Below are positions 1 through 14,996 of a stretch of DNA of 20,353 bases, in pieces. The stretch is from Steroidobacteraceae bacterium (GTDB taxonomy: Bacteria; Pseudomonadota; Gammaproteobacteria; Steroidobacterales; Steroidobacteraceae). The number at the start of each line of letters is the position of its first letter. Position 1 is the stretch's first letter. The stretch lies in NCBI GenBank assembly GCA_035276085.1, contig DATELY010000001.1, positions 1-20,353 on the forward strand, in the 5' to 3' direction. A program made the translations under genes and the position numbers. A model generated the notes under the pieces. That model saw only the letters and a list, made by a program, of their open reading frames with translations, made no database searches and was not told the DNA's origin.

Positions 1-469
1 CACTCGGAAGCGTACGCAGTACGCGGGTGCAATCACCTTGAAGAACTCGATTGATCGGGAACATGGCGGAGCCTCCGCTTGCATCGGCGGGATTGCCGAC
101 GCTCGCCCCCGACCACGGCGCGCGCAGCGGTCAAGGATCGAAGACCGCCGCAGGCGGCGAGTGCGTCCTCGCGCTCGTCCTTGACGGCGAGCACGGCGTG
201 GTACGCTGAAAGAGCAGAGGTAAGCCTGCTGTCTTCCTCCTTCTCATTCCTTACTCCTGGGTGCACGTGTTCGCCTCGGATGGCCGGCACCCGCTGCAGT
301 ATTGATCACCAAACCATCTCGCCCTTGCGGGCAAAATGTAAAACGATCCGACACCCGAATCAGCGACGGTTGGATGTCACGCCTGCTAGTTCTACACTCA
401 GTCTGAGAGTCTAAGAAAAACGCAGCCGGCGGGAGTCAACCGGCATAAACGGAATCACAGGGGCTAGCC

Positions 470-2773
470 GTGGCACGGAGAAGAAAGGGGAGCTCTGGGG
501 GAATCGGAGGCGTCGTCGTCGGCGCCATCATCCTGATGATCGCAGCGATCCCGAAGGAGATGTGGATCGCGATCGGCGCCGTTGCTCTGATTACGCTCAT
601 TGTGTGGCTACTTTCGAAGTCCAAGCAGGCCACCGAGCCACCGGCAGAACACAATGCCGAGGAAGAAACGGCGCGCTTTGAAGAGGCTCCCAGAAAGACA
701 ATACAGCGGTCTCGACCCCCGGAGCCCAAAGGTCGCAGCGTCCCACCGCGTTGGGTGTCCACATCGGAAACGGTCGAGGTCGCCGGCACGTCGATTACTG
801 GCGGAATGCTGTACTTCGGCTCAGACCTACGCGCATCGAGCGGTGATATTGAGCCGGCTTTGATCGACCCGCGCCAACCCGTCGCGCGTGACAAGGCAGA
901 TCCTGCGCTCAGCCAGATGGGTTACTGGCCTAGCTATTCGTCGATTTCGCCCTCAGCGCGCCGCTGCTACGTCGAATGGCTGGCGTCCGGCCGAAGCGAT
1001 CCGCAGGCTGACATCGGGTACGTCTTTCTATTTTTCTACGGGCTCGAACGGCGAGCATTAGTTGATGCTCCGTCCGATCAGACTGCGAAGGCAGACCTGC
1101 CACTGATCGAAGAAGAAGTGAAGCGTCTGCTTCGTCTCTACGGGCACAGTCGTTCGTTCCGACGGTATGCAAGCTCGTTCCTCGACTTGCTAGTTTCACT
1201 GGGTGCCGGAGATTCGATCGACGAAGCGCCCCCGCCGCAGGCTACGGACGGTGAAATGTCACTCGAGCTCAGACTCGGTCTTGGACGCATGGCGATGAGC
1301 GGGCGACCAGTCCCAGCCGAATGGGCGCACGCCTGGATGCTCCGGGATCCACGTATCCCGTTCCCGAAGGCATTGCAGCGCTGTCCGGTCGAATCCGAGA
1401 AAATGTTCATGAGTCTCTACCGCGATCGTCACGGGGAAGGCATCAAGCTACCGGCCAATCGCACGAAACTGCGCCTGAGCTATCGGCCGGCATCAGGCGG
1501 CTTTAGCGGCACGGAGTTCCAACTCCCGACGGGCGACGTGCCGGATATCACAGCCGTCGTGGCGCCTGCGAAGAAGATTGAAGCTCTTGTGGAGGAATGC
1601 GCAGCGGTGCTAGCGCCGTATTCCCGCTACATCGCCAAGAATCCGGATCAAGGCCAATCGCTCGAAGCGATCCTGCTCCTGCCCCATTCGCTCTGGCCTG
1701 CAACGGCACGGGCGACCATGCAGACCCTCGATGAGCGGATTGGCAGCGGCTTGCGGGTCATGTCGCTGGGCGAGCTGGCCTCGTCGTTTGGTAGTCCCGG
1801 GGCACTCACGCGCGAGCGGATTCGTTCACTCGCGCACGCGCTCGAAGAGATTCACATCGGCATCGAACCTGACGTCCTCGCTGGGGCACGAACTCCAAAG
1901 GCCGATGATCGAATCATTCTTTTCCGCACCGAGCCCGAGGACGGCACGACTCGACAAACGCCCGTGTACCAGGCTGCCTCGGTTACGCTCGATCTGGCTT
2001 GCAGCGTCGCGATGGCTGACGGAAAGCCGCACGCGAATGAACTGCGCCTGTTGATGAAGCAGATCGATGGCTGGACGCAACTCACGGAGGCGCAGCGCAA
2101 GCGACTTCGAGCGCGCTTGCGGATGGCTATTGACGCACCTCCTTCGCTCGCTTCACTAAGAAGCAAGCTGGACATCATCCCTGTCGCAGGCAGACGGGCG
2201 ATCGCACATCTGCTGTCGACGCTGGCGCAGGCGGATGGGACCGTGGATGCATCTGAAGTTCGTCTGCTCGAGAAAATCTATAAGGCGCTCGGCATCGATA
2301 CCGACGTCGCCTACAGCGATCTGCATATCGCTGCAGCAGCGGCACCGACCACCAAAGCCCCGGCAGCGGTCGCGCCCGCTGCTCCGGCAGAGGGTCTCAC
2401 GCTAGACATGGAACGGATCGAAGCACTGCAACGCGAGACGGCACAAGTCTCTGCTCTGCTGTCCAAGGTATTCGCCGATGACGCTGCTGACTCGATCGAG
2501 ACACTGGAGGAGTTGGAGGAGACGCAGCCCGTTGGCGACGGGTGTTTGCTCGGGCTCGATGCCGAGCACAGCATTTTCCTGCGTTTGCTTTTGACTCGAT
2601 CGTCCTGGCCGCGGCAAGACCTGGCAGACGCGGCCGCAGACATGGAGATGATGCTCGATGGTGCGCTCGAGCGAATCAATGAGGCATCCTTCGAGCAGTT
2701 CGATGAGGCGCTAATCGACGGCGACGATCCGATCGAGATCTCGCGCGAGGTTCTGGAGAAGATCGCGGCATGA
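470..2773 (+). CDS. Membrane-anchored TerB-N / TerB / TerB-C domain protein (767 aa, GTG start)
   Basis: Long ORF with GTG start at 470 and AGGGG about 10 nt upstream. One N-terminal hydrophobic helix (GVVVGAIILMIAAIPKEMWIAIGAVALITLIVWLL). VEVAGTSITGGMLYFG fits my memory of the TerB-N signature. Two TerB-like helical repeats (SVTLDLACSVAMADGKPHANELRLLMKQIDGW and AIAHLLSTLAQADGTVDASEVRLLEKIYKALGID). Acidic helical C-terminus consistent with TerB-C. Its TGA stop overlaps the next ATG (ATGA at 2770-2773). Confidence 0.65.
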   Translation: MARRRKGSSGGIGGVVVGAIILMIAAIPKEMWIAIGAVALITLIVWLLSKSKQATEPPAEHNAEEETARFEEAPRKTIQRSRPPEPKGRSVPPRWVSTSETVEVAGTSITGGMLYFGSDLRASSGDIEPALIDPRQPVARDKADPALSQMGYWPSYSSISPSARRCYVEWLASGRSDPQADIGYVFLFFYGLERRALVDAPSDQTAKADLPLIEEEVKRLLRLYGHSRSFRRYASSFLDLLVSLGAGDSIDEAPPPQATDGEMSLELRLGLGRMAMSGRPVPAEWAHAWMLRDPRIPFPKALQRCPVESEKMFMSLYRDRHGEGIKLPANRTKLRLSYRPASGGFSGTEFQLPTGDVPDITAVVAPAKKIEALVEECAAVLAPYSRYIAKNPDQGQSLEAILLLPHSLWPATARATMQTLDERIGSGLRVMSLGELASSFGSPGALTRERIRSLAHALEEIHIGIEPDVLAGARTPKADDRIILFRTEPEDGTTRQTPVYQAASVTLDLACSVAMADGKPHANELRLLMKQIDGWTQLTEAQRKRLRARLRMAIDAPPSLASLRSKLDIIPVAGRRAIAHLLSTLAQADGTVDASEVRLLEKIYKALGIDTDVAYSDLHIAAAAAPTTKAPAAVAPAAPAEGLTLDMERIEALQRETAQVSALLSKVFADDAADSIETLEELEETQPVGDGCLLGLDAEHSIFLRLLLTRSSWPRQDLADAAADMEMMLDGALERINEASFEQFDEALIDGDDPIEISREVLEKIAA

Positions 2774-4065
2774 CAACCATCAAAGCGAAAGAGCGAGACA
2801 CGGTTATTCAAGCGCTGCGTGCCGGCGTCGTACCGCGCATTGGGCAACACCTGATCCAGGTCGGCCGCGCAAGAGAGATCGAGACACTCCTCCGGGACAT
2901 CGAACGCATCGCCGAGGCCGGTACAGGTTTTCGCCTAGTGATCGGCGAGTACGGCGCGGGGAAGACCTTCTTCCTGAATCTCGTACGTGCTATCGCGATG
3001 GAAAAGCGGCTCGTCACAGCGCACGCCGACCTGAATCCGGACCGACGCTTACAGGCTTCCGGAGGCCAGGCACGCTCACTTTATGCTGAGCTGATGAAGA
3101 ACCTCTCGACGCGCACCAAACCTGACGGCGGAGCACTGTCCGGTGTTGTTGAAAAGTTCGTCGCACAAGCGAAGACGGAAGCTAAGGCTGCATCCCGCAA
3201 TAGTGAAGACGTGATTCGAGAGAAGCTTTCGAGCTTGTCGGAACTCGTCGGTGGCTACGACTTCGCAGAAGTCATCGCCGCATATTGCCGCGGCTTCGAG
3301 GAAGGCAACGACAAGCTCAAGGCAGACGCGGTACGGTGGCTACGCGGCGAATTCACGACAAAGACGGACGCCAGAGCAGCCCTCGGGGTGCGGACGATTG
3401 TCGACGACGATGCGTTTTACGATCAGCTGAAGCTCTTTGCGCGCTTTGTCAGGTTGGCCGGCTTCTCAGGGCTACTGGTCTGTCTGGATGAAATGGTGAA
3501 TCTGTACAAGCTCGCCAATGCTCAGGCGCGCAATGCCAATTACGAGCAAGTACTGCGCATTCTGAACGATTCACTGCAAGGCTCAGCCGATGGTTTGGGC
3601 TTCGTGCTGGGAGGTACGCCGGAGTTCCTGCTCGACACGCGACGTGGTCTGTACAGCTACGCGGCGCTTCAATCTCGACTCTCCGAGAACACTTTTGCCG
3701 CGCAAGCCGGGCTGCAGGATTTCTCAGGCCCAGTCCTTCGACTATCGAGTCTGACGAATGAGGACTTCTTTGTGCTCCTGCAGAAGCTCAGACACGTCTA
3801 CGCGAGTGGCAACGAGTCGAAATATCTGCTCCCGGACGACGGGCTCATCGCCTTTATGCAACACGCTTCGAAACGCCTTGGAGAAGCGTACTTCCGGACC
3901 CCAAGAACAACGATCACGGCGTTCCTGAGTCTGCTTGCCACGCTTGAACAGCACCCGCAGGCGAATTGGCGCGAAATGCTGGGCGCCGTGGTCGTGGAGG
4001 AAGACAAGGAAGGCAATGACGAGGGAGCCACCGAGGATGACGAGCTCGCATCCTTCAAACTCTGA
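2770..4065 (+). CDS. P-loop ATPase, BrxD-like (DUF2791-type) ATP-binding protein
   Basis: 431-aa ORF. Walker A RLVIGEYGAGKTFFLNL and Walker B LLVCLDEMVNL. Size and motif spacing match the BrxD/DUF2791 family as I recall it. Start overlaps the upstream stop, suggesting translational coupling. Confidence 0.65.
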   Translation: MTTIKAKERDTVIQALRAGVVPRIGQHLIQVGRAREIETLLRDIERIAEAGTGFRLVIGEYGAGKTFFLNLVRAIAMEKRLVTAHADLNPDRRLQASGGQARSLYAELMKNLSTRTKPDGGALSGVVEKFVAQAKTEAKAASRNSEDVIREKLSSLSELVGGYDFAEVIAAYCRGFEEGNDKLKADAVRWLRGEFTTKTDARAALGVRTIVDDDAFYDQLKLFARFVRLAGFSGLLVCLDEMVNLYKLANAQARNANYEQVLRILNDSLQGSADGLGFVLGGTPEFLLDTRRGLYSYAALQSRLSENTFAAQAGLQDFSGPVLRLSSLTNEDFFVLLQKLRHVYASGNESKYLLPDDGLIAFMQHASKRLGEAYFRTPRTTITAFLSLLATLEQHPQANWREMLGAVVVEEDKEGNDEGATEDDELASFKL

Positions 4066-6265
4066 TGAATCCGGCTTTTCCCTCCTCCATCCGAGCATTC
4101 AGCGCTGGGTATGGTCAAAGGGGTGGACATCGCTGCGCGACGCTCAGGAGCGAGCGATCCGACCCATTTTGGAAGCCAGGGAAGACATCATCATTGCAGC
4201 GGCGACTGCCGCCGGAAAGACTGAAGCCGCGTTCCTACCCATCCTAACGAACATCGCCAATGCGGGTGAGGAATCAGCGCTCGCAATCTATGTCAGCCCC
4301 CTCAAAGCACTGATCAACGATCAGTGGGGGCGCCTCGAAGAGCTGTGCGAATCCCTCGAGCTGCCGGTTATTCCCTGGCATGGCGACATCCCAGCGAGCA
4401 GAAAGACCCGGTTCCTTAAGTATCCGCGTGGTGTTCTGCTGATCACCCCTGAATCGCTAGAAGCGATGTTTGTAACTCGAGGAAGTGAGACTCCGCGCCT
4501 GTTTGCAGCGTCTCAGCATGTCGTCATCGACGAGCTGCATGCTTTCATCGGCACCGACCGCGGCAAGCAGATGCAGTCTCTCCTCCACCGGATCGATGGT
4601 GCGGCCGCCAAGCGAATACCGAGAGTGGGACTCTCCGCGACGCTCGGAGACATGAAACTCGCCGCCTCATTCCTACGGCCGAACGAAGCTGAGCAGGTGC
4701 GCCTCATCGTTTCGCAAGGCGGCGGGCAGGAGCTTCGGATCCAGGTGCGCGGCTACCTCTGCCCTGCTTTCATCAAGAGCGACGAGAACGCGGAGCATCG
4801 CGACGAGCAAACCCTCGGCTCGGAAAATGCCATCGCGGACCATCTCTACCGGGTGCTTCGCGGCACCAACAATCTCATCTTTCCGAACTCGAGAAAGAAG
4901 GTCGAGTTCTACACCGACGCATTGCGCCAGCGCTGCGAGGCGAACGCAGTGCCCACTGAGTTCTGGCCTCATCACGGAAGTCTCGCACGGGCGATCAGAG
5001 AGGAAACGGAGAAGGCGCTCAAGCAAGGCGACCGGCCCGCAACCGCCATCTGCACGACGACACTGGAGCTGGGCATAGACATTGGGGCCGTACAGAGCGT
5101 CGCGCAGATCGGTCCCGGTCCGTCCGTGGCATCGCTTCGGCAGCGTTTGGGGCGCTCGGGACGACGCCAAGGCGAGCCTGCGATTCTACGTTCCTACAAT
5201 ATCGAGCAGGCGCTGACGGAGAAGTCTTCGCTCTCCGACTGCCTGCGCGAAGCGCTCGTACAGTCGATTGCAATGATTCGATTACTACTGCGAGGCTGGT
5301 TCGAGCCGCCTCACTCGAGCGGCCTGCACCTCTCCACGCTCGTTCAGCAGGTACTGTCCGTCATCGCGGAACGCGGTGGCGCACACGCAAGTCAGCTCTA
5401 TAGGTCGCTAATCAGCGAAGGTGCGTTTCACGGACTCTCATCGGCAGAGTTCGGCGAGTTCCTGAGTAGCCTCGGGAGCAAGGACCTCATCGCTCAGGAC
5501 CGGACGGGTCTGCTGCTCCTCGGAGAGGCCGGGGAACGATTCGTAGGTAGTCATGACTTTTACTCAGCCTTCACGTCCGAGGAAGAATGGCAGATCCTCT
5601 GCCAGGGCCAAACTATGGGCTCGCTGCCCATCAGCTCGCCGATCTTTCCGGGGATGCGATTGATATTCGCAGGACGACGATGGCAGGTTGTTGCCGTCGA
5701 TGAGGAGGCGCTTGTCGTGTCTGTCGCATCAGATCCAGGCGGCTTGCCGCCACTCTTTGGTGGCGGCAAAGCGAGCACGCACGACGTCGTACGACGCGAG
5801 ATGCGCGATGTGCTCGCTGCGAACGAGACGATTGGCTTCCTCGACTCGACCGCCTCCTCGCTGCTCGTCGAGGCTCGCCAGCAGTTTTCCAAGCTCAAGC
5901 TCGACGACACGCGTGTGATCAAGGCCGGCAACCTGACAACCGTGTTCACGTGGCGCGGCGACGCCGCCAACGATGCTCTAGTGCTGCTACTGCGCGGTCT
6001 CGGTATCGACAACGTCGAGAACGAGGGTCTCTATGTTGAAATCGCCAAGTGTGACGATGATCGGCTGCACGATGCCCTGTCGGATATCGCAGAGCTGCGC
6101 GATGTCGACTACATCAGCCTACTGACAGACGTATTCAACATGCGAAGGAGCAAGTGGGATTGGGTTCTCTCTGACTCACATCTCAGGAGATCGTTCGCCT
6201 CCTCGCATCTATCGTTTGAAGGCGCGCGTGCAATCGCACGCGAGTACGCAGATCTAAACCACTGA
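4037..6265 (+). CDS. Superfamily 2 DEAD/DEAH-box helicase, Lhr-like (BrxHI-like), with long C-terminal extension
   Basis: Motif I IIIAAATAAGKTEAAFLPIL, motif II VVIDELHAF (DEAH-type), motif III SATLG, motif VI-like LRQRLGRSGRR. About 350 aa follow the helicase core, as in Lhr-type proteins. The ORF track starts at 3935. I prefer ATG 4037 (GGAG 11 nt upstream; typical Lhr N-terminus FSLLHPSIQRWVWSKGW). ATG 4016 is also possible. Overlaps the upstream gene by 29 nt. Confidence 0.75.
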   Translation: MTSSHPSNSDESGFSLLHPSIQRWVWSKGWTSLRDAQERAIRPILEAREDIIIAAATAAGKTEAAFLPILTNIANAGEESALAIYVSPLKALINDQWGRLEELCESLELPVIPWHGDIPASRKTRFLKYPRGVLLITPESLEAMFVTRGSETPRLFAASQHVVIDELHAFIGTDRGKQMQSLLHRIDGAAAKRIPRVGLSATLGDMKLAASFLRPNEAEQVRLIVSQGGGQELRIQVRGYLCPAFIKSDENAEHRDEQTLGSENAIADHLYRVLRGTNNLIFPNSRKKVEFYTDALRQRCEANAVPTEFWPHHGSLARAIREETEKALKQGDRPATAICTTTLELGIDIGAVQSVAQIGPGPSVASLRQRLGRSGRRQGEPAILRSYNIEQALTEKSSLSDCLREALVQSIAMIRLLLRGWFEPPHSSGLHLSTLVQQVLSVIAERGGAHASQLYRSLISEGAFHGLSSAEFGEFLSSLGSKDLIAQDRTGLLLLGEAGERFVGSHDFYSAFTSEEEWQILCQGQTMGSLPISSPIFPGMRLIFAGRRWQVVAVDEEALVVSVASDPGGLPPLFGGGKASTHDVVRREMRDVLAANETIGFLDSTASSLLVEARQQFSKLKLDDTRVIKAGNLTTVFTWRGDAANDALVLLLRGLGIDNVENEGLYVEIAKCDDDRLHDALSDIAELRDVDYISLLTDVFNMRRSKWDWVLSDSHLRRSFASSHLSFEGARAIAREYADLNH

Positions 6266-6327
6266 TCAAGGAACACCACGCAGATGCCGAAGATGGACCT
6301 CGTCAAGAAGATTAGGGAATTCAAGGC

Positions 6328-9300
6328 ATGCTAGCAGCCCATCAATCGTTGCGACTAAGCGCCTCGGATCTCGTCGGCCATCTCAACTGCCGGCATCTGA
6401 CGGCCCTCGAGCTCGAGGCGACCAATGGAACGATCGAGCGCCCAACTTTCCGCGATCCATTGCTGGAAATCCTGTGGGAACGCGGCGCACTCCACGAACG
6501 CCAGTACGTGGACTATCTTGCGAAGGAAGGCTACGCGGTCATCCACATCGAGGGCGTTGGGATTACTCAGGAAGCTGTGCAGCAAACGCAGGCCGCGATG
6601 AAAGCAGGCACTGAGGTCATAGTACAGGCCGCGCTGTCTGGTGGACGCTGGGGCGGCCGGCCCGACATCCTCAGACGCGCCGCGGCACCAAGCGCGCTTG
6701 GGAATTGGTCGTACGAAGTCCTAGACACGAAGCTTGCGCGCGAGACTAGAGGCGGCACAGTCCTGCAACTCTGCCTCTATGCGGATCTTCTTGCCACCGC
6801 TCAGGGACTGTCGCCGGAGTACATGTATGTCGTGAAACCCGGTGCAACCTTTGAGCTGCAGCGCTTCCGGACAGCCAGCTACGAAGCGTACTACCGATAC
6901 GTCAAACGTAGTCTTGAACGTTCGCTTGAGGCCGGTGACGCGACATATCCGAACCCGAAGGAGCACTGCGAGATCTGCCGCTGGCGCATGCAGTGCAACC
7001 TCAAGCAACGGCACGATGACCACCTGTGCCTTGTCGCAGGAATCACGAAAATACAGATTGGTGAGCTCCAGCGCTACGGAATTCACACTGCCGCCGCGCT
7101 CGCACGGATGCCCGTCCCATTACAGTGGAAGCCTGAGCGAGGAGTACCTCAGTCCTACGAGCGATCGCGTGAGCAGGCGCGCGTCCAAGTCGCAGCTCGT
7201 ACGTCGGGGCACCCAATCTACGAGACCATCCCACCGGAGCCCGGGATCGGACTGGCTCGACTGCCGGAACCATCGCCTGGCGACATCTTCTTCGATCTCG
7301 AGGGCGATCCATTCGTGGGTGAGGGTGGCCTTGAATTCCTTTTCGGCTACCTATTCCTCAGCGAGAATGGCGAGCAGTCCCATGTCGGAGAGTGGGCCTT
7401 CAATCGCAATGACGAACAACGCGCCTTCGAGCGCTTTGTTGATTTCACAATGGCGCGCTGGTCGCGGCATCCCGCGATGCACGTCTACCACTATGCATCT
7501 TACGAACCAGGCGCACTGAAGCGCCTGATGGGACGTTACGCCACGCGAGAGGACGAAGTAGACCGCATGCTTCGTGGCGGCCTGTTTGTCGATCTCTACA
7601 CGATCGTGCGGCAAGGCATTCGCGCCAGTGTCGAGAGCTATTCGATCAAGAATCTGGAAGTTTTCTGTGGCTTCACTCGTAAGGTGCCACTCGCCGACGT
7701 GCGCCCTGCCCTCGCGACCGTGCAGGCCGCATTGGAGCTTGCAGACTTAGCACAGGTCAGCGAGCAGGATCGGGAGATCGTCGAAGCGTACAACCGAGAT
7801 GATTGCGCTTCTGCCCAGGCGCTGCGCAATTGGCTGGAGGCTGTTCGGGCAAAGCTGATCACGGAAAGGGCAACGATCGCGCGCCCCGCGGCCGAGTCTT
7901 CCGAGCCCACACAGGAAATCGGCGAGCGCCAGCAACAGATCGAAGCACTGGTCGCCAGACTGACGCAGGGTGTCCCAGCAGAAATCGAAGGTCGCACTGC
8001 CGAGCAGCAAGGCCGATGGATCCTGGCCTACACGCTGGATTGGCACCGGCGCGAGCTCAAGTCGGTCTGGTGGGAATACTTTCGGCTCTCCGACCTGACC
8101 GTAGATGACCTTCTCGACGAGCGTTCCGCACTCGCGGGACTAGAGTTCATCCAGGAGATTGGCGGCACGAAGAAGGCCCCGATTCATCGCTATCGCTTCC
8201 CGGCTCAAGACACCGATCTGAGACCAGGGGACACACTCTGCATGGTGGGTGGTGAAAATCTCGGTCGGATCGAAGCTGTCTCGTATGAGGATCGAACGAT
8301 CGACATCAAGAAGCGAATGGACACCGCATCCGTGCATCCGCAGGCGGTCTTCGAGCATGACCTCGTCGGCACCAATGAGCAGGCCGATGCGCTGATGCGG
8401 CTCGGCATGCATGTGGCGGAACATCGGATAGAAGGGGATGGTCCGTATCAAGCAGCGCGCGATCTGCTGCTGCGTCGGTCACCGGTTGTTTCCCCCGTAC
8501 GCCATGCTGGCGAGACAACGCTGGCTGCGGCGACTCGTCTGGCTCCGATGCTTTCCTCCGGCGTATTGCCCATCCAGGGGCCGCCGGGTGCGGGCAAAAC
8601 GTACACCGCCGCACGCATGATTTGCGAGCTGGTTCGAGCTCGAAAGAAAGTCGGAATCACCGCCAACAGTCACAAGGTCATTCGCAACCTACTAAATGAG
8701 GTCGTGAAAGCAGCTGATGATCTAAATGTCGATATCTCTTGCGTTCAGAAGCCCGGGGAGCCCGAAGAGGATGTTCATCGCATCCGGTTCGCCAGAAAGA
8801 ACGAGGATGTCTTCGCCGCACTCGCTGGGAATTGCGATGTTGCCGGCGGAACCTCGTGGCTCTGGGCGCGCAAAGAGGCATTTGAGTCGGTCGATGTTCT
8901 GTTCGTGGATGAAGCAGCGCAGATGTCTCTCGCGAACGTGCTTGCAGTGGCGCACGCATGCAAGACGCTCATTCTCGTGGGCGACCCACAGCAACTGGAG
9001 CAACCTACGAAGGGCAGCCACCCTGAAGGTACGGACGTATCGGCGCTGCATCATATGCTTGGCGGCAAACCAACCATTGAAGCCGAACAAGGTCTGTTCC
9101 TCGAGGAAACCTGGCGGCTACATCCTGCTATCTGCAAATTCACTTCCGAACTTTTCTACGAGGACAAACTTCGACCCCGTCCTGGCCTCGAGCGCCAAAC
9201 GATCCGTTCGACGCGAGCGAATGGATCAGGACTGCGTTTCTTTGCTGTGGCACACGAAGGCAACCAGAACTCAGCGCCCGAGGAAGCCGATCAGATTCGC

Positions 9301-9705
9301 GCAATTGTTGACGACATCCTCGGCACAAGGAGCACTTGGGTCGACGCGAAAGGCAAGGAGCTGCCGCTTGAGCCCACAGATCTCCTCATCATCGCACCCT
9401 ACAATGCGCAGGTCTTCGAACTTCAGGAGCGCCTACCTGCCTTTCGCGTTGGTACCGCCGACAAGTTCCAGGGCCAGGAAGCACCGATCGTGATCTATTC
9501 GATGACCACTTCCACTCACGCTGACGCCCCACGAGGGATGGAGTTTTTGTACAGCTTAAACCGATTGAACGTTGCAACGTCGCGAGCGAAGTGCCTATGT
9601 ATTCTCGTAGGGTCGCCGGCGCTGTTTGAACCCGAATGCAAGACGCCTGGGCAAATGGAATTAGCGAATGCGTTCTGCCGATATCTGGAGATGGCTACAA
9701 GCTAG
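6328..9705 (+). CDS. Nuclease-helicase fusion: Cas4/RecB-family PD-(D/E)xK nuclease with Fe-S cysteines + DnaQ/RNase-H-like domain + SF1B (Upf1/DNA2-like) helicase
   Basis: N-terminal nuclease motifs: GRPDIL (motif II), YEVLDTKLA (E-x-D-x-K motif III), QLCLYADLL (QhxxY). Cys ligands: one Cys in LNCRHLTALE plus CEICRWRMQC (C-x2-C-x5-C), the Cas4/AddB 4Fe-4S pattern. Mid-region DIFFDLEGDPF and YHYASYEPG resemble DnaQ-like exonuclease I/II motifs. C-terminal helicase: Walker A IQGPPGAGKTYTAA, Walker B VLFVDEAAQM, LILVGDPQQL, motif VI VATSRAKCLCILVG. Confidence 0.8.
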   Translation: MLAAHQSLRLSASDLVGHLNCRHLTALELEATNGTIERPTFRDPLLEILWERGALHERQYVDYLAKEGYAVIHIEGVGITQEAVQQTQAAMKAGTEVIVQAALSGGRWGGRPDILRRAAAPSALGNWSYEVLDTKLARETRGGTVLQLCLYADLLATAQGLSPEYMYVVKPGATFELQRFRTASYEAYYRYVKRSLERSLEAGDATYPNPKEHCEICRWRMQCNLKQRHDDHLCLVAGITKIQIGELQRYGIHTAAALARMPVPLQWKPERGVPQSYERSREQARVQVAARTSGHPIYETIPPEPGIGLARLPEPSPGDIFFDLEGDPFVGEGGLEFLFGYLFLSENGEQSHVGEWAFNRNDEQRAFERFVDFTMARWSRHPAMHVYHYASYEPGALKRLMGRYATREDEVDRMLRGGLFVDLYTIVRQGIRASVESYSIKNLEVFCGFTRKVPLADVRPALATVQAALELADLAQVSEQDREIVEAYNRDDCASAQALRNWLEAVRAKLITERATIARPAAESSEPTQEIGERQQQIEALVARLTQGVPAEIEGRTAEQQGRWILAYTLDWHRRELKSVWWEYFRLSDLTVDDLLDERSALAGLEFIQEIGGTKKAPIHRYRFPAQDTDLRPGDTLCMVGGENLGRIEAVSYEDRTIDIKKRMDTASVHPQAVFEHDLVGTNEQADALMRLGMHVAEHRIEGDGPYQAARDLLLRRSPVVSPVRHAGETTLAAATRLAPMLSSGVLPIQGPPGAGKTYTAARMICELVRARKKVGITANSHKVIRNLLNEVVKAADDLNVDISCVQKPGEPEEDVHRIRFARKNEDVFAALAGNCDVAGGTSWLWARKEAFESVDVLFVDEAAQMSLANVLAVAHACKTLILVGDPQQLEQPTKGSHPEGTDVSALHHMLGGKPTIEAEQGLFLEETWRLHPAICKFTSELFYEDKLRPRPGLERQTIRSTRANGSGLRFFAVAHEGNQNSAPEEADQIRAIVDDILGTRSTWVDAKGKELPLEPTDLLIIAPYNAQVFELQERLPAFRVGTADKFQGQEAPIVIYSMTTSTHADAPRGMEFLYSLNRLNVATSRAKCLCILVGSPALFEPECKTPGQMELANAFCRYLEMATS

Positions 9706-9791
9706 GAGCTACGAAGTAAGCGATTAAGCTACCGCCTCGGGAACGCGCTGCCGATTAACTAATTCAGTTTGAAATCGGTGTTGGTGTATCA

Positions 9792-9817
9792 GGGAACTTG
9801 GGAGTTCCTCATTTCTT
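9792..9817 (+). terminator. Possible intrinsic terminator after the four-gene operon (GGAACT-TGGG-AGTTCC hairpin followed by TCATTTCTT)
   Basis: 6-bp perfect stem, 4-nt loop and a T-rich tail about 90 nt after the ORF4 stop. Short stem and imperfect U-tract. Confidence 0.3.
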
Positions 9818-10430
9818 GGAATCACTCTTCCAATGGGATCTTTTCCTTCGGCTAGATGACGGCTCACCGGACCATGACGCACAATGCGACGCTGCGAGCT
9901 TCATCAAATAGCTAACGGCACGCGCAGCTCGCGAGATGTACTCGCATCAACGCAGCACTGAGACACACGCCATGCTTTCGCACGAAGCAGTTGCACACGT
10001 AATAAAGCGTGCTAATCTCCGCGCGTATTCATTGACACGCGGCCGCGCGCCGCACAACTGAAGCGAAACTGAAATGCTCTCCATCCACGGAACAGCCATG
10101 CAAAGCACGCTACGCGAATTAAATCGCGCCGCGGTCGGCTGCCCGTCGATTACGGGTAGCTGGTCACGGCCTGTCGCGAAAAATCATCGCGACTTCGGGA
10201 CCGAACTCGATCGGTAACCGCCTTTAGGGCTCTTTGCCCCCGAAGGCGCAAGCCGGACGGGGCACCCACGGGAGCCTAGCCACCTGAGATCCCTCTCAGA
10301 GTCGGCGAAAACCACCCAAAACAGTGTTCCGTCCGCGAGGTAAAGCCCTCGATACGGATTCGTACGCGCTACGCGTATGGACCCCTGCGCCGCACGTTCG
10401 GCCAGGACGCTGTTTAACAATCAGAAATTG

Positions 10431-10595
10431 ATCAGGGCTCTCACCCTGATTTCGCATTGCGCACTGAATTCTTCAGCGGCGCGGCACGCGCGCGCGTCGA
10501 ACACGCGGTGATGTGTTTGTGAAGTGGAGGGTGAGAGCCCGGAGCTGGTGAGAAATTTTTTGAAGCACGTGAAAGCGTGAGGGTCTCACTCGCTC
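10431..10595. repeat. Repeated/inverted motif AGGGYTCTCAC upstream of the tRNA array: hairpin ATCAGGG-CTCTCA-CCCTGAT (10431-10450), inverted copy GGGTGAGAGCCC (10529-10540), third direct copy GGGTCTCAC (10582-10590); also a (CG)5 tract
   Basis: Read directly. The 12-mer GGGCTCTCACCC and its exact reverse complement lie about 83 nt apart. A one-mismatch direct copy lies about 15 nt before the first tRNA. Confidence 0.5.
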
Positions 10596-10603
10596 TGAAA
10601 TTT

Positions 10604-10679
10604 GCGGATGTAGCTCAATTGGCAGAGCGCGAGTCTTCCAAACTCGAGGTCATGGGTTCGATCCCCATCGTCCGCCCCA
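10604..10679 (+). tRNA. tRNA-Gly (anticodon TCC), CCA encoded
   Basis: Cloverleaf: acceptor GCGGATG/CGTCCGC, D-arm TAGCTCAATTGGCAGAGC, anticodon stem CGAGT/ACTCG with loop CTTCCAA, T-arm ATGGG-TTCGATC-CCCAT, discriminator C, CCA. Confidence 0.85.
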
Positions 10680-10737
10680 GATTTCGATGCACGTTGCGAC
10701 TCTCATGCGAGTTGAACGTGTGCATCTTAGTTGATTC

Positions 10738-10814
10738 GCGGATGTAGTTCAGTCAGGCAGAACACGACGTCGCCAACGTCGAGGCCATGGGTTCGAGTCC
10801 CATCGTCCGCACCA
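10738..10814 (+). tRNA. tRNA-Gly (anticodon GCC), CCA encoded
   Basis: Same acceptor as the preceding Gly. Anticodon stem CGACG/CGTCG with loop TCGCCAA. T-loop TTCGAGT. Paralog of the upstream Gly gene. Confidence 0.85.
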
Positions 10815-10823
10815 CTCAAGTTT

Positions 10824-10908
10824 GCCGACGTGGTTGAACTGGCAGACACGCCAGCCCGAGGAGCTGGTAGCGAAAGCTTTGCCGGTTCGAGTCCGGCCGT
10901 CGGCACCA
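10824..10908 (+). tRNA. tRNA-Leu (anticodon GAG), class II, CCA encoded
   Basis: Acceptor GCCGACG/CGTCGGC. Anticodon stem CCAGC/GCTGG with loop CCGAGGA (unusual C32 C33). Long variable arm. T-arm GCCGG-TTCGAGT-CCGGC. Aligns with E. coli Leu-GAG architecture. Confidence 0.7.
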
Positions 10909-10948
10909 ATGTGTGATTTCGTTCGTTAAACCACATAAGGAGAATGTC

Positions 10949-12166
10949 ATGAGCCTCGAGGAAATGACGAAGATCGACAACCTGAAGTCATGGATCTCGG
11001 GTGTCGACATCGATTGGGACACGGTGAAGCAGCTGCGCAACATCGCGGAGCTGCCGATCCTCGCAGGTCACGTGGCCGTGATGCCGGACGTGCATCTCGG
11101 CAAGGGCGCAACTGTGGGATCGGTGATTCCGACCAAGGGCGCGATCATTCCGGCTGCGGTCGGCGTGGACATCGGCTGCGGTATGGCGGCCGTGCGCACG
11201 GAGATCTCCGCGAATCAGTTGCCGGACTCGCTGCGTCGACTGCGCTTGCGCATCGAAGAGCGTGTGCCGGTCGGATTCAACTCGCACGATCGACCGCTCA
11301 ATCCTCTGCACGATGGCTTGCGCGGGGTTGCACTGTCGAATGCCGGCAAGAAGATGGCGGAGCGGTACAACACGCTCAAGATCATGGACGTCATCGGCAA
11401 GCACGACCACAAGCGCACGTACAACCAGCTGGGAACGCTGGGCGGCGGCAACCACTTCATCGAGCTGTGTGTCGATGAGTCGAACGGCGTGTGGGTAATG
11501 CTTCACTCCGGCTCGCGCAACATCGGCAAGACGATCGGGGAGACGGCGATCCACATGGCGCGCCAGATTGCGGAACGCGAGGAGCGCGGGCTGCGTGACC
11601 GCGACCTTGCGTGGCTTGACGAAGGTTCGGCCGAGTTCGACATGTACGTCGAAGGCCTGCGCTGGGCGCAAGACTATGCGGCTCACAACCGCGCTTTGAT
11701 GATGCACGAGGTGCTGGTCGCGCTTCGTGAGGAGTTCGGGCGCGAGATCGCGATGTTCGAGAACGCAGTCCAGTGTCACCACAACTATGCATCGGTCGAA
11801 GAGCACTTCGGCCAACAGGTGTGGGTAACCCGCAAGGGCGCGGTATCGGCGCGTCGCGACGAGCTCGGCATCATCCCTGGCTCAATGGGTGCCAAGTCGT
11901 TCATCGTGCGCGGTAAGGGCAATGCAGATTCGTATTGCTCCTGCTCGCATGGCGCCGGTCGTCGCCTCTCTCGCGGCGCTGCGAAGCGGACTTACACGCT
12001 CGCGGATCTGAAGAGGCAGACGGAAGGCGTCGAGTGCCGCAAGGACGAAGGCGTGCTCGATGAGATCCCGGGCGCCTACAAGGACATCGATATGGTCATG
12101 GCTGCGCAGGCCGACCTCGTCGACGTCGTACATACCTTGAAGCAAGTGATGTGCATCAAGGGTTGA
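10949..12166 (+). CDS. rtcB: RtcB-family 3'-phosphate/5'-hydroxyl RNA ligase
   Basis: RBS AAGGAGA 5 nt before ATG 10949. The ORF track's 10913 start lacks an RBS. Hallmark RtcB motifs: LGTLGGGNHFIEL, AVQCHHNYA (GMP-histidine region), CSCSHGAGRR, and the metal-binding-type HLGKGATVGS. Confidence 0.9.
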   Translation: MSLEEMTKIDNLKSWISGVDIDWDTVKQLRNIAELPILAGHVAVMPDVHLGKGATVGSVIPTKGAIIPAAVGVDIGCGMAAVRTEISANQLPDSLRRLRLRIEERVPVGFNSHDRPLNPLHDGLRGVALSNAGKKMAERYNTLKIMDVIGKHDHKRTYNQLGTLGGGNHFIELCVDESNGVWVMLHSGSRNIGKTIGETAIHMARQIAEREERGLRDRDLAWLDEGSAEFDMYVEGLRWAQDYAAHNRALMMHEVLVALREEFGREIAMFENAVQCHHNYASVEEHFGQQVWVTRKGAVSARRDELGIIPGSMGAKSFIVRGKGNADSYCSCSHGAGRRLSRGAAKRTYTLADLKRQTEGVECRKDEGVLDEIPGAYKDIDMVMAAQADLVDVVHTLKQVMCIKG

Positions 12167-12212
12167 TGTCTCTTCGAGGGTTGGGTGTACGGATGCACCC
12201 GACTCTCACTCT

Positions 12213-12365
12213 GCACCGGTAGCTCAATTGGTATGGTCGAGACCATTTCCGTTGGTCGGAGTTGCGGTTTCGCCGCTCCTGCGCGTCCATGCGCCCGCGG
12301 CATTCGCACATCCGTGTGCAGCACAAAACCGCCTGTTGGGGGTTCGAGTCCCTCCCGGTGTGCCA
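12213..12365 (+). tRNA. Aberrant 153-nt tRNA-like locus: 5' acceptor + D-arm start (GCACCGG TA GCTCAATTGGTA...) and 3' T-arm/acceptor/CCA (GGGGG-TTCGAGT-CCCTC CCGGTGT G CCA) separated by about 85 nt of extra hairpin-rich sequence; isotype undetermined
   Basis: Acceptor halves pair (GCACCGG/CCGGTGT with G1-U72). T-loop TTCGAGT and CCA are canonical. No standard anticodon arm was found by eye. A possible anticodon stem GCGGT...ACCGC flanks a roughly 55-nt insert. Confidence 0.4.
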
Positions 12366-12379
12366 CTTTTTCAAATGAT

Positions 12380-12464
12380 CCGTTCCTGGCGGAACTGGTA
12401 GACGCGCTGGGCTCAGAACTCAGTGTCTTCGGACATCCCGGTTCGACTCCGGGGGAACGGACCA
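12380..12464 (+). tRNA. tRNA-Leu (anticodon CAG), class II, CCA encoded
   Basis: Acceptor CCGTTCC/GGAACGG. D-arm TGGCGGAACTGGTAGACGCG as in E. coli Leu. Anticodon stem CTGGG/CTCAG with loop CTCAGAA. Variable arm GTGTC-TTCG-GACAT. T-arm CCCGG-TTCGACT-CCGGG. Confidence 0.8.
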
Positions 12465-12482
12465 CAACATCGTCTGATCTAC

Positions 12483-12694
12483 GCGGGCGTAGCGGAAAAG
12501 GTAAACGCGACCCTAAAACGTGAAGAGGGAAAGCCGAAGAGGCTACGCGGGTAATCAGCCGAGGCACGTGGTTGCGGATGCACCGAATGGCTACGCGAGT
12601 GGTCGCCAGGGAAGCGCGTTTCCAAGCCGACGCTGTCTTCGAGTAATGATCGGAGTTCCGCGATGTGCAGGTTCGAATCCTGTCGCCCGCACCA
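12483..12694 (+). tRNA. Aberrant 212-nt tRNA-like locus: 5' GCGGGCG TA GCGG... and 3' GCAGG-TTCGAAT-CCTGT CGCCCGC A CCA with perfectly complementary acceptor strands separated by about 135 nt; insert contains GGCTACGCG(G/A)G repeated three times
   Basis: Canonical T-arm, discriminator and CCA at the 3' end. A perfectly complementary 7-nt acceptor partner lies 200 nt upstream. Too short for a group I intron. Could be an interrupted or intron-containing tRNA, or a pseudogene plus fragment. Confidence 0.3.
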
Positions 12695-12710
12695 ATACTT
12701 CTTGAGCCGT

Positions 12711-12798
12711 GCGCTCCTGGTTGGAACTGGAAGACACGCCGCGCTTAAAACGCGGTGCTCATTCGAGCGTGCCGGTTCGAATCCGGCGGAGCGCACCA
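12711..12798 (+). tRNA. tRNA-Leu (anticodon TAA), class II, CCA encoded
   Basis: Acceptor GCGCTCC/GGAGCGC. Anticodon stem CCGCG/CGCGG with loop CTTAAAA. Variable arm GCTC-ATTC-GAGC. T-arm GCCGG-TTCGAAT-CCGGC. Confidence 0.85.
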
Positions 12799-12814
12799 CT
12801 GGTTCGATTCTTTC

Positions 12815-12900
12815 GCGTCCCTGGTTGGAATTGGAATACACGCTGCGCTCAAAACGCAGTGCCTTCGGGCATGCCGGTTCGAATCCGGCGGGACGCACCA
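12815..12900 (+). tRNA. tRNA-Leu (anticodon CAA), class II, CCA encoded
   Basis: Paralog of the preceding Leu-TAA (same D-arm and T-arm). Anticodon stem CTGCG/CGCAG with loop CTCAAAA. Variable arm TGCC-TTCG-GGCA. Confidence 0.85.
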
Positions 12901-12908
12901 GTTTCTGC

Positions 12909-12985
12909 GGATCGTTAGCTCAATTGGCCAGAGCATCCGGTTCTTACCCGGCAGGTTGAAGGTTCGATTCCTTCACGGTCCACCA
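12909..12985 (+). tRNA. tRNA-Lys (anticodon CTT), CCA encoded
   Basis: Acceptor GGATCGT/ACGGTCC. Anticodon stem TCCGG/CCGGC (27-43 mismatch) with loop TTCTTAC. T-loop TTCGATT. Confidence 0.75.
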
Positions 12986-13001
12986 ACATCACCTTGTGCA
13001 G

Positions 13002-13076
13002 GGGCGTGTAGCTCAAGGGTTAGAGCATCCGGCTTTTAACCGGACGGCGAGGGTTCGATCCCCTCCGCGCCCACCA
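13002..13076 (+). tRNA. tRNA-Lys (anticodon TTT), CCA encoded
   Basis: Acceptor GGGCGTG/CGCGCCC. Anticodon stem TCCGG/CCGGA with loop CTTTTAA. T-arm GAGGG-TTCGATC-CCCTC. Confidence 0.85.
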
Positions 13077-13078
13077 CT

Positions 13079-13152
13079 TGGGGCTTCGTCTAGCGGCAGG
13101 ACATCGCGCTTTGAACGCGAGAACTCAGGTTCGAACCCTGGAGCCCCAGCCA
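13079..13152 (+). tRNA. tRNA-Gln (anticodon TTG), CCA encoded
   Basis: U1-A72 acceptor TGGGGCT/AGCCCCA (a Gln hallmark). Anticodon stem TCGCG/CGCGA with loop CTTTGAA. T-loop TTCGAAC. Discriminator G. Confidence 0.85.
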
Positions 13153-13167
13153 CACGCGATTGCGAAT

Positions 13168-13243
13168 GCCACGTTAACTCAGCGGCCAGAGTGCTCGCCT
13201 GTCTAGCGAGAAGTCACGGGTTCGAATCCCGTACGTGGCGCCA
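13168..13243 (+). tRNA. tRNA-Asp (anticodon GTC), CCA encoded
   Basis: Acceptor GCCACGT/ACGTGGC. Anticodon stem CTCGC/GCGAG with loop CTGTCTA. T-arm ACGGG-TTCGAAT-CCCGT. Discriminator G. Confidence 0.85.
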
Positions 13244-13249
13244 GATCAC

Positions 13250-13325
13250 GCACCGATAGCTCAGCTGGTAGAGCGCCTGGTTGAAGCCCAGGAGGCCGCA
13301 GGGTCGAAACCTGCTCGGTGCACCA
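13250..13325 (+). tRNA. tRNA-Phe (anticodon GAA), CCA encoded, atypical T-loop GTCGAAA and G37
   Basis: Acceptor GCACCGA/TCGGTGC. Anticodon stem CCTGG/CCAGG with loop TTGAAGC. T-stem GCAGG/CCTGC with loop GTCGAAA (G at position 54). Confidence 0.7.
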
Positions 13326-13335
13326 CTTTCATCGT

Positions 13336-13411
13336 TGGCCAGTAGCTCAGTTGGCAGAGCACTCCGCTGTTACCGGAGCCGTCACAGGTTCGAGTCCTGT
13401 CTGGCCAGCCA
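13336..13411 (+). tRNA. tRNA-Asn (anticodon GTT), CCA encoded
   Basis: Acceptor TGGCCAG/CTGGCCA (U1-A72). Anticodon stem CTCCG/CGGAG with loop CTGTTAC. T-arm ACAGG-TTCGAGT-CCTGT. Confidence 0.8.
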
Positions 13412-13445
13412 CATCTTTTGAATAGCGAACCAAGAGGAGAACGCG

Positions 13446-13688
13446 ATGACTTCGATCAAAGAGATGGTGGCGAACGGCCGCAAAGTTCGATTCACGCACT
13501 ACAAGTCCGGTGAGCTCTGGTACGAGACGGAGTGCGGATTCGCATTCCCTGTACCGACCGCGGATGCAGGCGACGGATGTTTCCTAGCTGAAGACAAGGC
13601 GCTGCTGTTCATGCGCTACATCAGGAAGCACAAAGAGGTGCTCGATCACGCGCGTGCTGACGCTGAGTCCGCCGACCAACAGCCATAG
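13446..13688 (+). CDS. Hypothetical small protein (80 aa) embedded in the tRNA array
   Basis: Strong RBS AAGAGGAGA 6 nt before ATG 13446. ORF sits in an otherwise tRNA-only interval. No recognisable motif. Followed by a hairpin-rich repeat. Confidence 0.5.
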   Translation: MTSIKEMVANGRKVRFTHYKSGELWYETECGFAFPVPTADAGDGCFLAEDKALLFMRYIRKHKEVLDHARADAESADQQP

Positions 13689-13695
13689 GTGAAGT

Positions 13696-13917
13696 CCCTT
13701 TACGCGAGGTCCCGAAGGCCCGGCCTCGCGAGAGCTCGGAACTCACTCTTGGGACACACGGGACGCGCGCGAACACGCGCGTTCGGGCCGCACTGATTCG
13801 ACGCTTTGACCAGGCCCTTTGCGCGAGAGTCCACCGCCCCAACCTCGCGAGGAGCATAGATACGCCTCCTTGGGACGAACGGGAACGCCGCAGATTCTGC
13901 GGTCAGTACTCGGGGCC
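13696..13917 (+). repeat. Tandem direct repeat, two copies of a roughly 100-nt element (copy A 13696-13789, copy B 13815-13917, period about 119 nt) with conserved blocks CCCTTTRCGCGAG / CCTCGCGAGRAGC / CTTGGGACRMACGGGA / CGGGCC and hairpins at matching positions built from different sequence
   Basis: Read directly. First hairpin CGCGAGG...CCTCGCG in both copies. Second hairpin ACGCGCG-CGAACA-CGCGCGT in A versus CCGCAG-ATT-CTGCGG in B. Same position, different sequence, which suggests a conserved RNA or DNA structure. Confidence 0.5.
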
Positions 13918-13928
13918 CCAACACACTC

Positions 13929-14003
13929 GCACGTATAGCTCAGCGGGAGAGCGCCGCTCTTACAAAGCGGAAGTCCTTGGTTCAATCCCAAGTGCGTGCG
14001 CCA
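13929..14003 (+). tRNA. tRNA-Val (anticodon TAC), CCA encoded
   Basis: Acceptor GCACGTA/TGCGTGC. Anticodon stem CCGCT/AGCGG with loop CTTACAA. T-arm CTTGG-TTCAATC-CCAAG. Confidence 0.85.
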
Positions 14004-14009
14004 CTTCAT

Positions 14010-14087
14010 GCGACGTTAGCTCAGATGGAACAGAGCGCCGGTTTGCGATGCCGGAGGCCGAAGGTTCAAGTCCTTCACGTCGCACCA
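14010..14087 (+). tRNA. tRNA-Arg (anticodon GCG), CCA encoded
   Basis: Acceptor GCGACGT/ACGTCGC. Anticodon stem CCGGT/GCCGG with loop TTGCGAT. T-arm GAAGG-TTCAAGT-CCTTC. Confidence 0.75.
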
Positions 14088-14094
14088 CATGTTC

Positions 14095-14171
14095 GCTCTC
14101 ATCGTCTAGTTGGACCAGGACACCTCCCTCTCACGGAGAAGACTGGAGTTCGAATCTCCATGAGAGCGCCA
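14095..14171 (+). tRNA. tRNA-Glu (anticodon CTC), CCA encoded
   Basis: Acceptor GCTCTCA/TGAGAGC. Glu-type D-arm TCGTCTAGTTGGACCAGGACA. Anticodon stem CCTCC/GGAGA (27-43 mismatch) with loop CTCTCAC. T-arm TGGAG-TTCGAAT-CTCCA. Confidence 0.8.
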
Positions 14172-14176
14172 CTGTT

Positions 14177-14255
14177 CGTTCCCGTCGTCTAGCCCGGCTC
14201 AGGACGCCGCCCTTTCAAGGCGAGAACACGAGTTCGAATCTCGTCGGGAACACCA
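14177..14255 (+). tRNA. tRNA-Glu (anticodon TTC), CCA encoded
   Basis: Acceptor GTTCCCG/CGGGAAC. Anticodon stem CCGCC/GGCGA with loop CTTTCAA. T-arm ACGAG-TTCGAAT-CTCGT. Confidence 0.8.
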
Positions 14256-14287
14256 ACCACGCGCGCATCTGGCGCGTACGAATTGAT

Positions 14288-14362: not shown

Positions 14363-14378
14363 ACGCAAAGCTCACGAT

Positions 14379-14456: not shown

Positions 14457-14464
14457 ACTTCAAC

Positions 14465-14540: not shown

Positions 14541-14551
14541 TACTCTTGATC

Positions 14552-14639: not shown

Positions 14640-14650
14640 CTCTCTTCTTC

Positions 14651-14991: not shown

Positions 14992-14996
14992 TCTTC

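Follow-up and report, generated by a model that had tools for sequence, protein, structure and literature searches.

The window analysed here is the whole 20,353-bp contig (DATELY010000001.1) of a Steroidobacteraceae metagenome-assembled genome. Its positions 470-6265 very likely constitute a complete Shango system (sngA-sngB-sngC) on a mobile defence island, and the gene that follows, referred to here as gene 4, is with the same high likelihood a module of its own with an independent distribution. The name Shango denotes a system of three genes, for a TerB protein, an ATPase and a helicase, which was reported to defend E. coli (Millman et al. 2022, 10.1101/2022.05.11.491447). The three Shango genes of P. 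aeruginosa PA14, placed in strain PAO1, reduced the efficiency of plating 10-100-fold (Johnson et al. 2023, PMC10250203). The triad had originally been predicted to lack experimental characterisation; in fact it is Shango, for which phage restriction has been shown in E. coli and PAO1, and the defence role that had also been predicted agrees with the activity of these homologous systems. Phage resistance is demonstrated only for the E. coli and P. aeruginosa homologues, and at the present locus it is predicted. Filing the locus as Shango removes a false lead towards a "new system".

The region 470-9705 is filled by four open reading frames (ORFs), all co-directional:

470-2773, + strand: sngA (gene 1), GTG start, 767 amino acids
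2770-4065, + strand: sngB (gene 2), 431 amino acids
4037-6265, + strand: sngC (gene 3), 742 amino acids
6328-9705, + strand: gene 4, 1125 amino acids, Dna2-like nuclease-helicase of the TM0106 family

Genes 1-3 were assigned to Shango because the PADLOC Sng models match them end to end and far above the BREX homologues. The SngA model matched gene 1 at 2e-108 over residues 72-766, and no BREX homologue matched this protein. Gene 2 was matched by SngB at 1e-182 and 606 bits, compared with 157 bits (2.5e-46) for BrxD, and gene 3 by SngC at 1e-274 and 912 bits over 724 residues, compared with 410 bits (4e-123) for BrxHI. The NCBIfam model BREX_BrxD scored 151 bits on gene 2, below its cut-off of 350. 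The homology of genes 2 and 3 to BrxD and BrxHI, as originally predicted, is therefore real, and the proposed link to a TerB/ATPase/helicase triad predicted by comparative genomics also holds, as both Shango papers cite the Ter-system analysis of Anantharaman et al. 2012 (10.1101/2022.05.11.491447; PMC10250203).

In common with known Shango systems, the locus combines a TerB_N/TerB/TerB_C protein, a BrxC_BrxD-family P-loop ATPase and an Lhr-like superfamily 2 (SF2) helicase, contiguous in the order A-B-C on one strand with overlapping junctions, and lies on a defence island or mobile element. Judged by their sequences, genes 1-3 are a fresh instance of an already named system, with no essential difference from Shango. 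What distinguishes this instance is that its host is an uncultured Steroidobacteraceae bacterium, that a Dna2-like nuclease-helicase follows sngC, and that the two-helix membrane anchor of its SngA falls outside the PADLOC SngA model.

Every domain named in the original prediction was confirmed by Pfam. SngA matched TerB_N (6e-62), TerB (5e-11) and TerB_C (1e-34), and was divided as follows:

Residues 11-51 (nt 500-622, + strand): two N-terminal hydrophobic helices
Residues 52-82: disordered linker
Residues 99-296: TerB_N (Pfam)
Between TerB_N and TerB: helical middle region
Residues 509-611: TerB (Pfam)
Residues 633-765: TerB_C (Pfam)

A single transmembrane helix had been proposed for the TerB protein. 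Instead, hydropathy peaked twice, at residues 10-28 and 31-49, and the AlphaFold model (predicted local distance difference test, pLDDT, 79.5) contained two helices at 11-25 and 29-51. The helices are preceded by MARRRK and followed by SKSK, and the topology they suggest would be a hairpin with both ends cytoplasmic, which fits cytoplasmic partners. A strongly hydrophobic 19-residue stretch (hydropathy score >=1.8) within the first 200 residues was present in 43 of 51 sampled SngA relatives. The fold search of SngA against the PDB returned only the TerB-like structures 2H5N and 2OU3 and no enzymatic or effector fold, and a PDB sequence search gave no match for SngA or SngB.

SngB matched BrxC_BrxD at 2e-154; its Walker A (GEYGAGKT, residues 59-66) and Walker B (D240-E241) motifs were both invariant in the SngB alignment. 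SngC is an SF2 DExH helicase of the Lhr/BrxHI-like type, with matches to DEAD (2e-28) and Helicase_C (6e-13), a weak match to WH_Lhr, and the DELH and GKT motifs retained in its translation. Its nearest solved structures were mycobacterial Lhr (5V9X, 7LHL) and YprA/MrfA (6ZNP). In a published helicase phylogeny, SngC clusters with BrxHI, DruE and DpdJ in a defence-specific SF2 clade.

How TerB proteins protect was still called unclear in a 2025 preprint. We propose that SngA could be tethered to the inner membrane by its two-helix hairpin, with the TerB domains in the cytoplasm, and, having no enzymatic fold, might act as a sensor or scaffold where phage DNA enters or the membrane is perturbed. 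SngB, the BrxD-like ATPase, would then serve as an ATP-driven switch or loader, and SngC, with the 3'-5' helicase activity of an Lhr-like enzyme, would target invading DNA or intermediates of replication, thereby blocking phage replication. Shango probably protects directly and not via cell killing.

The arrangement of the four same-strand ORFs and the lengths of their junctions were as originally predicted. The stop of sngA and the start of sngB share an ATGA overlap (2770-2773), sngB and sngC overlap by 29 nt (4037-4065) given a sngC start at ATG 4037, and 62 nt (6266-6327) separate sngC from gene 4. Mechanically the sngC ORF opens at 3935; we chose ATG 4037 as it is the gene call in a 94%-identical relative (L001). 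A terminator scan found no terminator-like site on the + strand between the four ORFs. A sigma-70 scan of positions 1-11000 returned no promoter-like site, a result that is uninformative. Gene 4 is probably co-transcribed with Shango in this lineage.

To place gene 4 relative to Shango, we surveyed a single genome for each species. The 80 full-length homologues that this yielded have identities of 49-63% and span Gammaproteobacteria, Alphaproteobacteria, Acidobacteriota, Dehalococcoidia, Thermotogae, Patescibacteria and other groups. At 75 of these 80 species-level loci, no Shango was located within 10 kb. A second survey used an SngB profile and covered the 80 metagenomic loci that it detected. 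In each of the 69 loci with all three genes readable, A, B and C followed in this order on the same strand, with the TerB protein invariably linked, and no conserved fourth gene was found across the 80 loci. In the flanks of at least 700 nt available from the roughly 50 more distant Shango loci (47 upstream, 45 downstream), there was not one full gene 4, so that the fourth gene is not conserved with the triad (0 full copies in 92 flanks). A 62-residue gene-4 fragment was seen at the contig edge of L104.

SngB homologues were present on 685 plasmids, chiefly of Klebsiella and Salmonella, and gene 4 on 66, chiefly of Rhizobium, Piscirickettsia and Sphingobium; the plasmid genera differ almost completely, with a few Mesorhizobium records in each set. 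None of 50,697 phage records yielded gene 4. We conclude that gene 4 is a recurrent but dispensable neighbour of Shango and not a regular part of it.

We also considered whether Shango systems in general acquire a nuclease, of varying type, as a fourth gene in the same direction. This was not supported, as 25 of 50 loci had no such ORF within 200 nt, and the remaining co-directional fourth ORFs were heterogeneous (JetA, TOTE primase, transporters and a few nucleases of the OLD, PDDEXK, RNase_T and PLD types). In P. aeruginosa PA14, a "large multi-domain helicase" adjoins Shango (Johnson et al. 2023, PMC10250203); to see whether this helicase might be a homologue of gene 4, we searched with a Pseudomonas copy of gene 4, and the best 120 matches included no P. 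aeruginosa protein. At one metagenomic Shango locus (L105, 13573-15945), a second TerB_N/TerB_C protein starts 41 nt past sngC and may represent a tandem Shango or a duplicated sngA.

The closest relatives of the window illustrate how gene 4 and Shango are arranged within one clade (identities are to the window copies):

L001: gene 4 94% identical; SngABC, SIR2, HerA, KTSC, gene 4
JGI contig (gene 4 as in L003): gene 4 84%; SngABC (sngA cut at the contig end), SIR2, HerA, KTSC, gene 4, Wadjet
L003: contig begins within HerA; HerA, KTSC, gene 4, Wadjet only
L246 and L247: SngA 69%, gene 4 80%; SngABC then gene 4, 31-nt gap, no SIR2 remnant
L248 and L249: SngA 65%; gene 4 divergent, 189 nt from sngA
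L250 (Peristeroidobacter agariperforans): SngA 65%; OLD-family nuclease right after sngC, no gene 4

In L001 and the JGI contig, SIR2-HerA-KTSC separates Shango from gene 4, whereas the window retains only a 14-codon remnant of it. By blastn, window 1-6325 aligned to L001 519-6844 and window 6355-9698 to L001 10028-13374, with no alignment past the gene 4 stop codon; homology breaks a few bases from both ends of gene 4. The remnant lies in the following feature:

6284-6334, + strand: deletion scar, a 16-codon mini-ORF MPKMDLVKKIREFKAC whose stop overlaps the start (ATG) of gene 4

Positions 6284-6325 of the window encode MPKMDLVKKIREFK, the first 14 codons of SIR2, and SIR2 of L001 begins MSKLDVVKEIRELK. 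Considering that the 5' end of SIR2 remains and that the blastn alignment to L001 is interrupted, the comparison indicates that the window lineage has lost ~3.2 kb comprising SIR2-HerA-KTSC and that the abutment of sngC and gene 4 here is the result of this deletion. The 62-nt gap of the original prediction is thus correct in length but is not a plain intergenic spacer, as it holds the first 14 codons of the deleted SIR2 gene. We dropped the scar as proof that the adjacency of Shango and gene 4 is secondary, as L246 and L247 have the same tandem layout without a scar. Their layout indicates that linkage in the clade predates the SIR2-HerA insertion; the scar therefore speaks for modularity, not for recent linkage.

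Further supporting modularity, the DNA downstream of gene 4 differs in every case: a tRNA array in the window, RES/AlpA/integrases in L001 and Wadjet in L003. Together with the homology that ends at gene 4, this suggests that gene 4 behaves as a discrete cassette. The gene 4 of L248 is 65% identical to the window copy, no closer than unlinked copies, which suggests an independent juxtaposition. As natural variants, the members of the clade could guide work on the mechanism of Shango, with a membrane-anchored SngA, loci with and without the adjacent nuclease-helicase, and an OLD-family nuclease instead in one of them. The latter (L250, 15798-17594; AAA_15/AAA_21 plus TOPRIM) begins 2 nt past the stop of sngC, where the sister loci have gene 4. 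Elsewhere on the L250 island lie HxsD/radical-SAM genes, an Mrr-like nuclease, a relaxase, AlpA and an integrase.

Gene 4 belongs to the TM0106 family. The NCBIfam model TIGR03491 (TM0106 RecB-like nuclease) matched at 1.5e-74 with 252 bits, above the cut-off of 97; it covers the N-terminal ~460 residues, to which an AAA_11/AAA_12 helicase is fused. The exact protein is named "TM0106 family RecB-like putative nuclease" at NCBI. In Pfam, it matched PDDEXK_1 (6e-5), RNase_H_2 (2e-16), AAA_11 and AAA_12, and its parts are:

Residues ~11-225: Cas4/RecB-type PD-(D/E)xK iron-sulfur (Fe-S) nuclease, with D113, D133-x-K135 and Q147...Y151
C21...C214-x2-C217-x5-C223: cluster of four cysteines in the nuclease
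Residues 320-503: RNase H-like/DEDD-like domain, with D323, E325, Y488 and D492
Residues 504-735: helical and beta linker
Residues 735-1107: Upf1/Dna2-type superfamily 1B (SF1B) helicase, with Walker A GPPGAGKT (751-758), DEAAQ (861-865) and GDPQQL (885-890)

The RNase H-like domain was absent from the features originally listed for this gene. Across 59 homologues of gene 4, the nuclease motifs, the cysteine cluster, D323/E325/D492 and all superfamily 1 (SF1) helicase motifs were invariant. The TM0106 nuclease-helicases form a large, widespread, horizontally transferred family with more than 6,800 matching database proteins; a literature search on TM0106 and nuclease found no papers on the family.

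The AlphaFold model of gene 4 (pLDDT 84.7) found its best PDB match in Dna2 (5EAN, E 8e-25), followed by Upf1, IGHMBP2 and Sen1, and Dna2 was the only fold match that covered both nuclease and helicase. The two proteins share an N-terminal PD-(D/E)xK nuclease with a C...CxxCx5C cluster, of the Fe-S type also seen in Cas4 and AddB-type nucleases, and a C-terminal Upf1-like SF1B helicase. However, identity to Dna2 is only 14% and the TM-score about 0.35, the sequence match is confined to helicase residues 1014-1098, and in gene 4 the nuclease and the helicase are set apart by a long linker and by an additional RNase H/DEDD-like domain. In contrast to the eukaryotic Dna2, gene 4 is bacterial, horizontally spread, and found on islands and plasmids. 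On this comparison, gene 4 is best described as an analogue or distant relative of Dna2, not an orthologue.

Among defence proteins, Nhi and the Mokosh proteins MkoA and MkoC likewise join a nuclease or effector to an Upf1-like SF1 helicase in one polypeptide and act in phage defence, but their nuclease type and domain order are unlike those of gene 4. PADLOC matched only the helicase part of gene 4 (MkoA 5e-42, MkoC 1e-29, residues ~820-1107) and, weakly, Cas4; no Nhi family was among the 10 PADLOC matches at E <= 1e-3.

Elsewhere in bacteria, the neighbourhood of gene 4 is varied. When the flanking ORFs of gene-4 loci were clustered, only Shango genes recurred as neighbours across phyla. SIR2-HerA-KTSC adjoins gene 4 without Shango in a Bryobacteraceae locus (L049) and on Rhizobium and Mesorhizobium plasmids. 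PADLOC applied to 147 immediate gene-4 neighbours gave scattered defence matches with no dominant partner, and ~85% had no match. Defence-like neighbours seen beside gene 4 include Wadjet, Zorya-like, type III restriction-modification-like, DrmD-like, GajB-like and DpdF-like genes. Between Pseudomonas and Rhizobiales, gene-4 copies share 76-77% identity, a sign of horizontal transfer. On the Rhizobium johnstonii plasmid pRlX2 (L244, 10001-13397), the gene-4 homologue is annotated as two overlapping coding sequences, probably a frameshift or pseudogene, and has an imuA-imuB-dnaE2/dinB mutasome cluster on one side and SIR2-HerA-KTSC on the other.

Descriptions of SIR2-HerA usually give it two genes. 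In five loci of different lineages, a small gene encoding a KTSC domain (~70 amino acids) followed SIR2-HerA, sometimes overlapping HerA, and KTSC may be a conserved third gene of this SIR2-HerA subtype. The five SIR2-HerA-KTSC loci are:

L001, 6803-9988
L003, 2-1313
L049, 4767-7952
L244, 14632-17858
L245, 12732-15820

Several observations weigh against regarding gene 4 as a module separate from Shango. At 5 of the 80 gene-4 loci Shango did lie within 10 kb, and then always as the immediate neighbour, with gaps of 30-500 nt; several metagenomic lineages show such adjacency too. These linked cases occupy five or more scattered places in the gene-4 and SngB trees, and immediate adjacency was found in at least six lineages, among Gammaproteobacteria, Alphaproteobacteria, Acidobacteriota and Thermotogae. 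Of the 6 loci in the Shango clade of the window whose flanks were readable, 5 carried gene 4. Furthermore, no nuclease was recognisable in SngA, SngB or SngC by Pfam or, for SngA, by fold search, and the mechanistic steps given above for SngABC are inferred only. A rough, inferred chance bound, with Shango placed randomly in every genome, a 20-kb window and a 5-Mb genome, gave ~0.4% of cases, or 0.3 expected among 80 loci, where 5 were seen. The adjacency of gene 4 and Shango is thus non-random and could reflect functional coupling.

Two explanations of this adjacency were weighed. We favour the ordinary clustering seen in defence islands, together with co-inheritance inside a single clade, because orientations vary, the insertion of another system is tolerated, most Shango loci lack gene 4 and a three-gene construct is sufficient. 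The layouts of the linked loci include gene 4 upstream in tandem (L045, L058), divergent (L015, L020) and convergent (L071), and in the SngB tree the loci of the window's clade form one clade, with the other gene-4-linked Shango loci scattered elsewhere. The second explanation, a facultative functional partnership, is kept alive because the adjacency recurs and Shango is without a nuclease, and we regard it as rather unlikely.

The strongest alternative for gene 4 itself, though we would still bet against it, is that it encodes a host enzyme for DNA repair or end processing, similar to Dna2 or AddAB, whose position beside Shango is incidental island hitch-hiking. Its Dna2-like fold is consistent with this, as are its occurrence alone in a conserved chromosomal synteny, flanked by a TonB receptor and by Yip1/ADH genes, in Steroidobacter and Peristeroidobacter, the imuA-imuB-dnaE2 and dinB genes that adjoin it on the Rhizobium plasmid, and the large share of immediate neighbours without a PADLOC match. 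However, a housekeeping role sits poorly with a patchy distribution and with the signs of horizontal transfer, both in the Pseudomonas and Rhizobiales copies and in the 49-63% full-length identity across phyla. Its neighbourhoods are also highly variable, and known defence modules recur in them (Shango, SIR2-HerA-KTSC, Wadjet, Zorya-like, DrmD-, GajB- and DpdF-like).

Tentatively, and with a lower expectation, gene 4 may be an undescribed defence gene that works by itself or as a facultative "plug-in" effector, degrading DNA for two nuclease-lacking systems, Shango and SIR2-HerA-KTSC. Were this true, the plug-in role would explain why gene 4 repeatedly adjoins Shango or SIR2-HerA-KTSC in unrelated bacteria and in every orientation. 

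On the favoured reading, as a separate module, gene 4 most likely unwinds and degrades DNA ends on its own, with its 5'-3' SF1B motor, Fe-S PD-(D/E)xK nuclease and DEDD-like exonuclease. Such an activity would suit a stand-alone role against phages and plasmids, or DNA repair; gene 4 may add to the protection by Shango but is not required for it. If the family proves to be a defence or anti-plasmid enzyme, it adds a bacterial Dna2-like effector to the known repertoire.

It is doubtful that all four genes form one system, in which gene 4 would be the nuclease effector of a Shango subtype, with SngABC sensing and loading and the Dna2-like enzyme degrading phage DNA. Consistent with such a system are the immediate adjacency in at least six lineages, the scar-free tandem layout of L246 and L247 with its 31-nt gap, the co-divergence of all four genes among the window, L001 and L246, the Shango core without any nuclease and the passage from sngC to gene 4 without a terminator. 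Against it, the 92 flanks of more distant Shango loci were devoid of full gene 4, the 685 Shango plasmids are mostly from Klebsiella and Salmonella, genera that are not at the top of the gene-4 plasmid list, and the three-gene construct was enough for defence in PAO1 (PMC10250203). In addition, divergent and convergent layouts mean separate transcription, an entire SIR2-HerA-KTSC is tolerated between Shango and gene 4, the gene 4 of L248 appears to have been juxtaposed independently, and gene 4 stands equally often beside SIR2-HerA-KTSC without Shango. The original proposal that a fourth effector extends the triad finds weak support: gene 4 adjoins Shango in several lineages, but its absence from nearly all other Shango loci speaks against the proposal.

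A degenerate type 2 BREX locus with only BrxD and BrxHI left is extremely improbable: genes 2 and 3 are homologous to this pair (a DUF2791/BrxC_BrxD ATPase next to an Lhr-like helicase, in matching order), but the Sng hidden Markov models fit them much better (4-fold and 2-fold higher in bits), NCBIfam BREX_BrxD stays far under its cut-off, a TerB_N/TerB_C protein is the invariably linked partner instead, and PglX, PglZ, PglW and BrxC/PglY are absent from the window (position 1 of the contig onwards) and from its longer-flanked relatives, in line with the original view that the triad stands outside BREX.

Further features were noted in the remainder of the window. At the left end, positions 1-64 (- strand) contain the 5' end of a divergent N6_N4 DNA methyltransferase gene, identified by alignment to L001, in which the protein has 265 amino acids. 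L250 has the same small methyltransferase upstream of Shango, with a few genes in between. Downstream of gene 4, the ~900 nt up to the first tRNA (9706-10603) contain no ORF of more than 80 amino acids and no Rfam match; an island or recombination boundary lies here, as the homology to L001 ends at 9698. At the right contig end, a SPFH/Band 7 protein (17702-18937, + strand) and a flotillin-domain protein (19206-20345, - strand) are encoded, and between these genes lies a 184-residue ORF without Pfam match (18942-19496).

The segment from 10604 to 17395 (+ strand) carries 26 tRNA genes in a one-strand array, 24 of them above the Rfam gathering score. The array is interleaved with genes for an RtcB RNA ligase (10913-12166), an HNH endonuclease (15106-15678) and a HEAT-repeat protein (15742-17097). 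With HNH and RtcB, it matches the horizontally transferred "L-arrays" of tRNAs, for which HNH and rtcB genes are reported as conserved neighbours (Santamaria-Gomez et al. 2021, PMC8421152). Some viral contigs of IMG/VR with RtcB homologues carry 11-37 tRNAs (L207, L190, L169).

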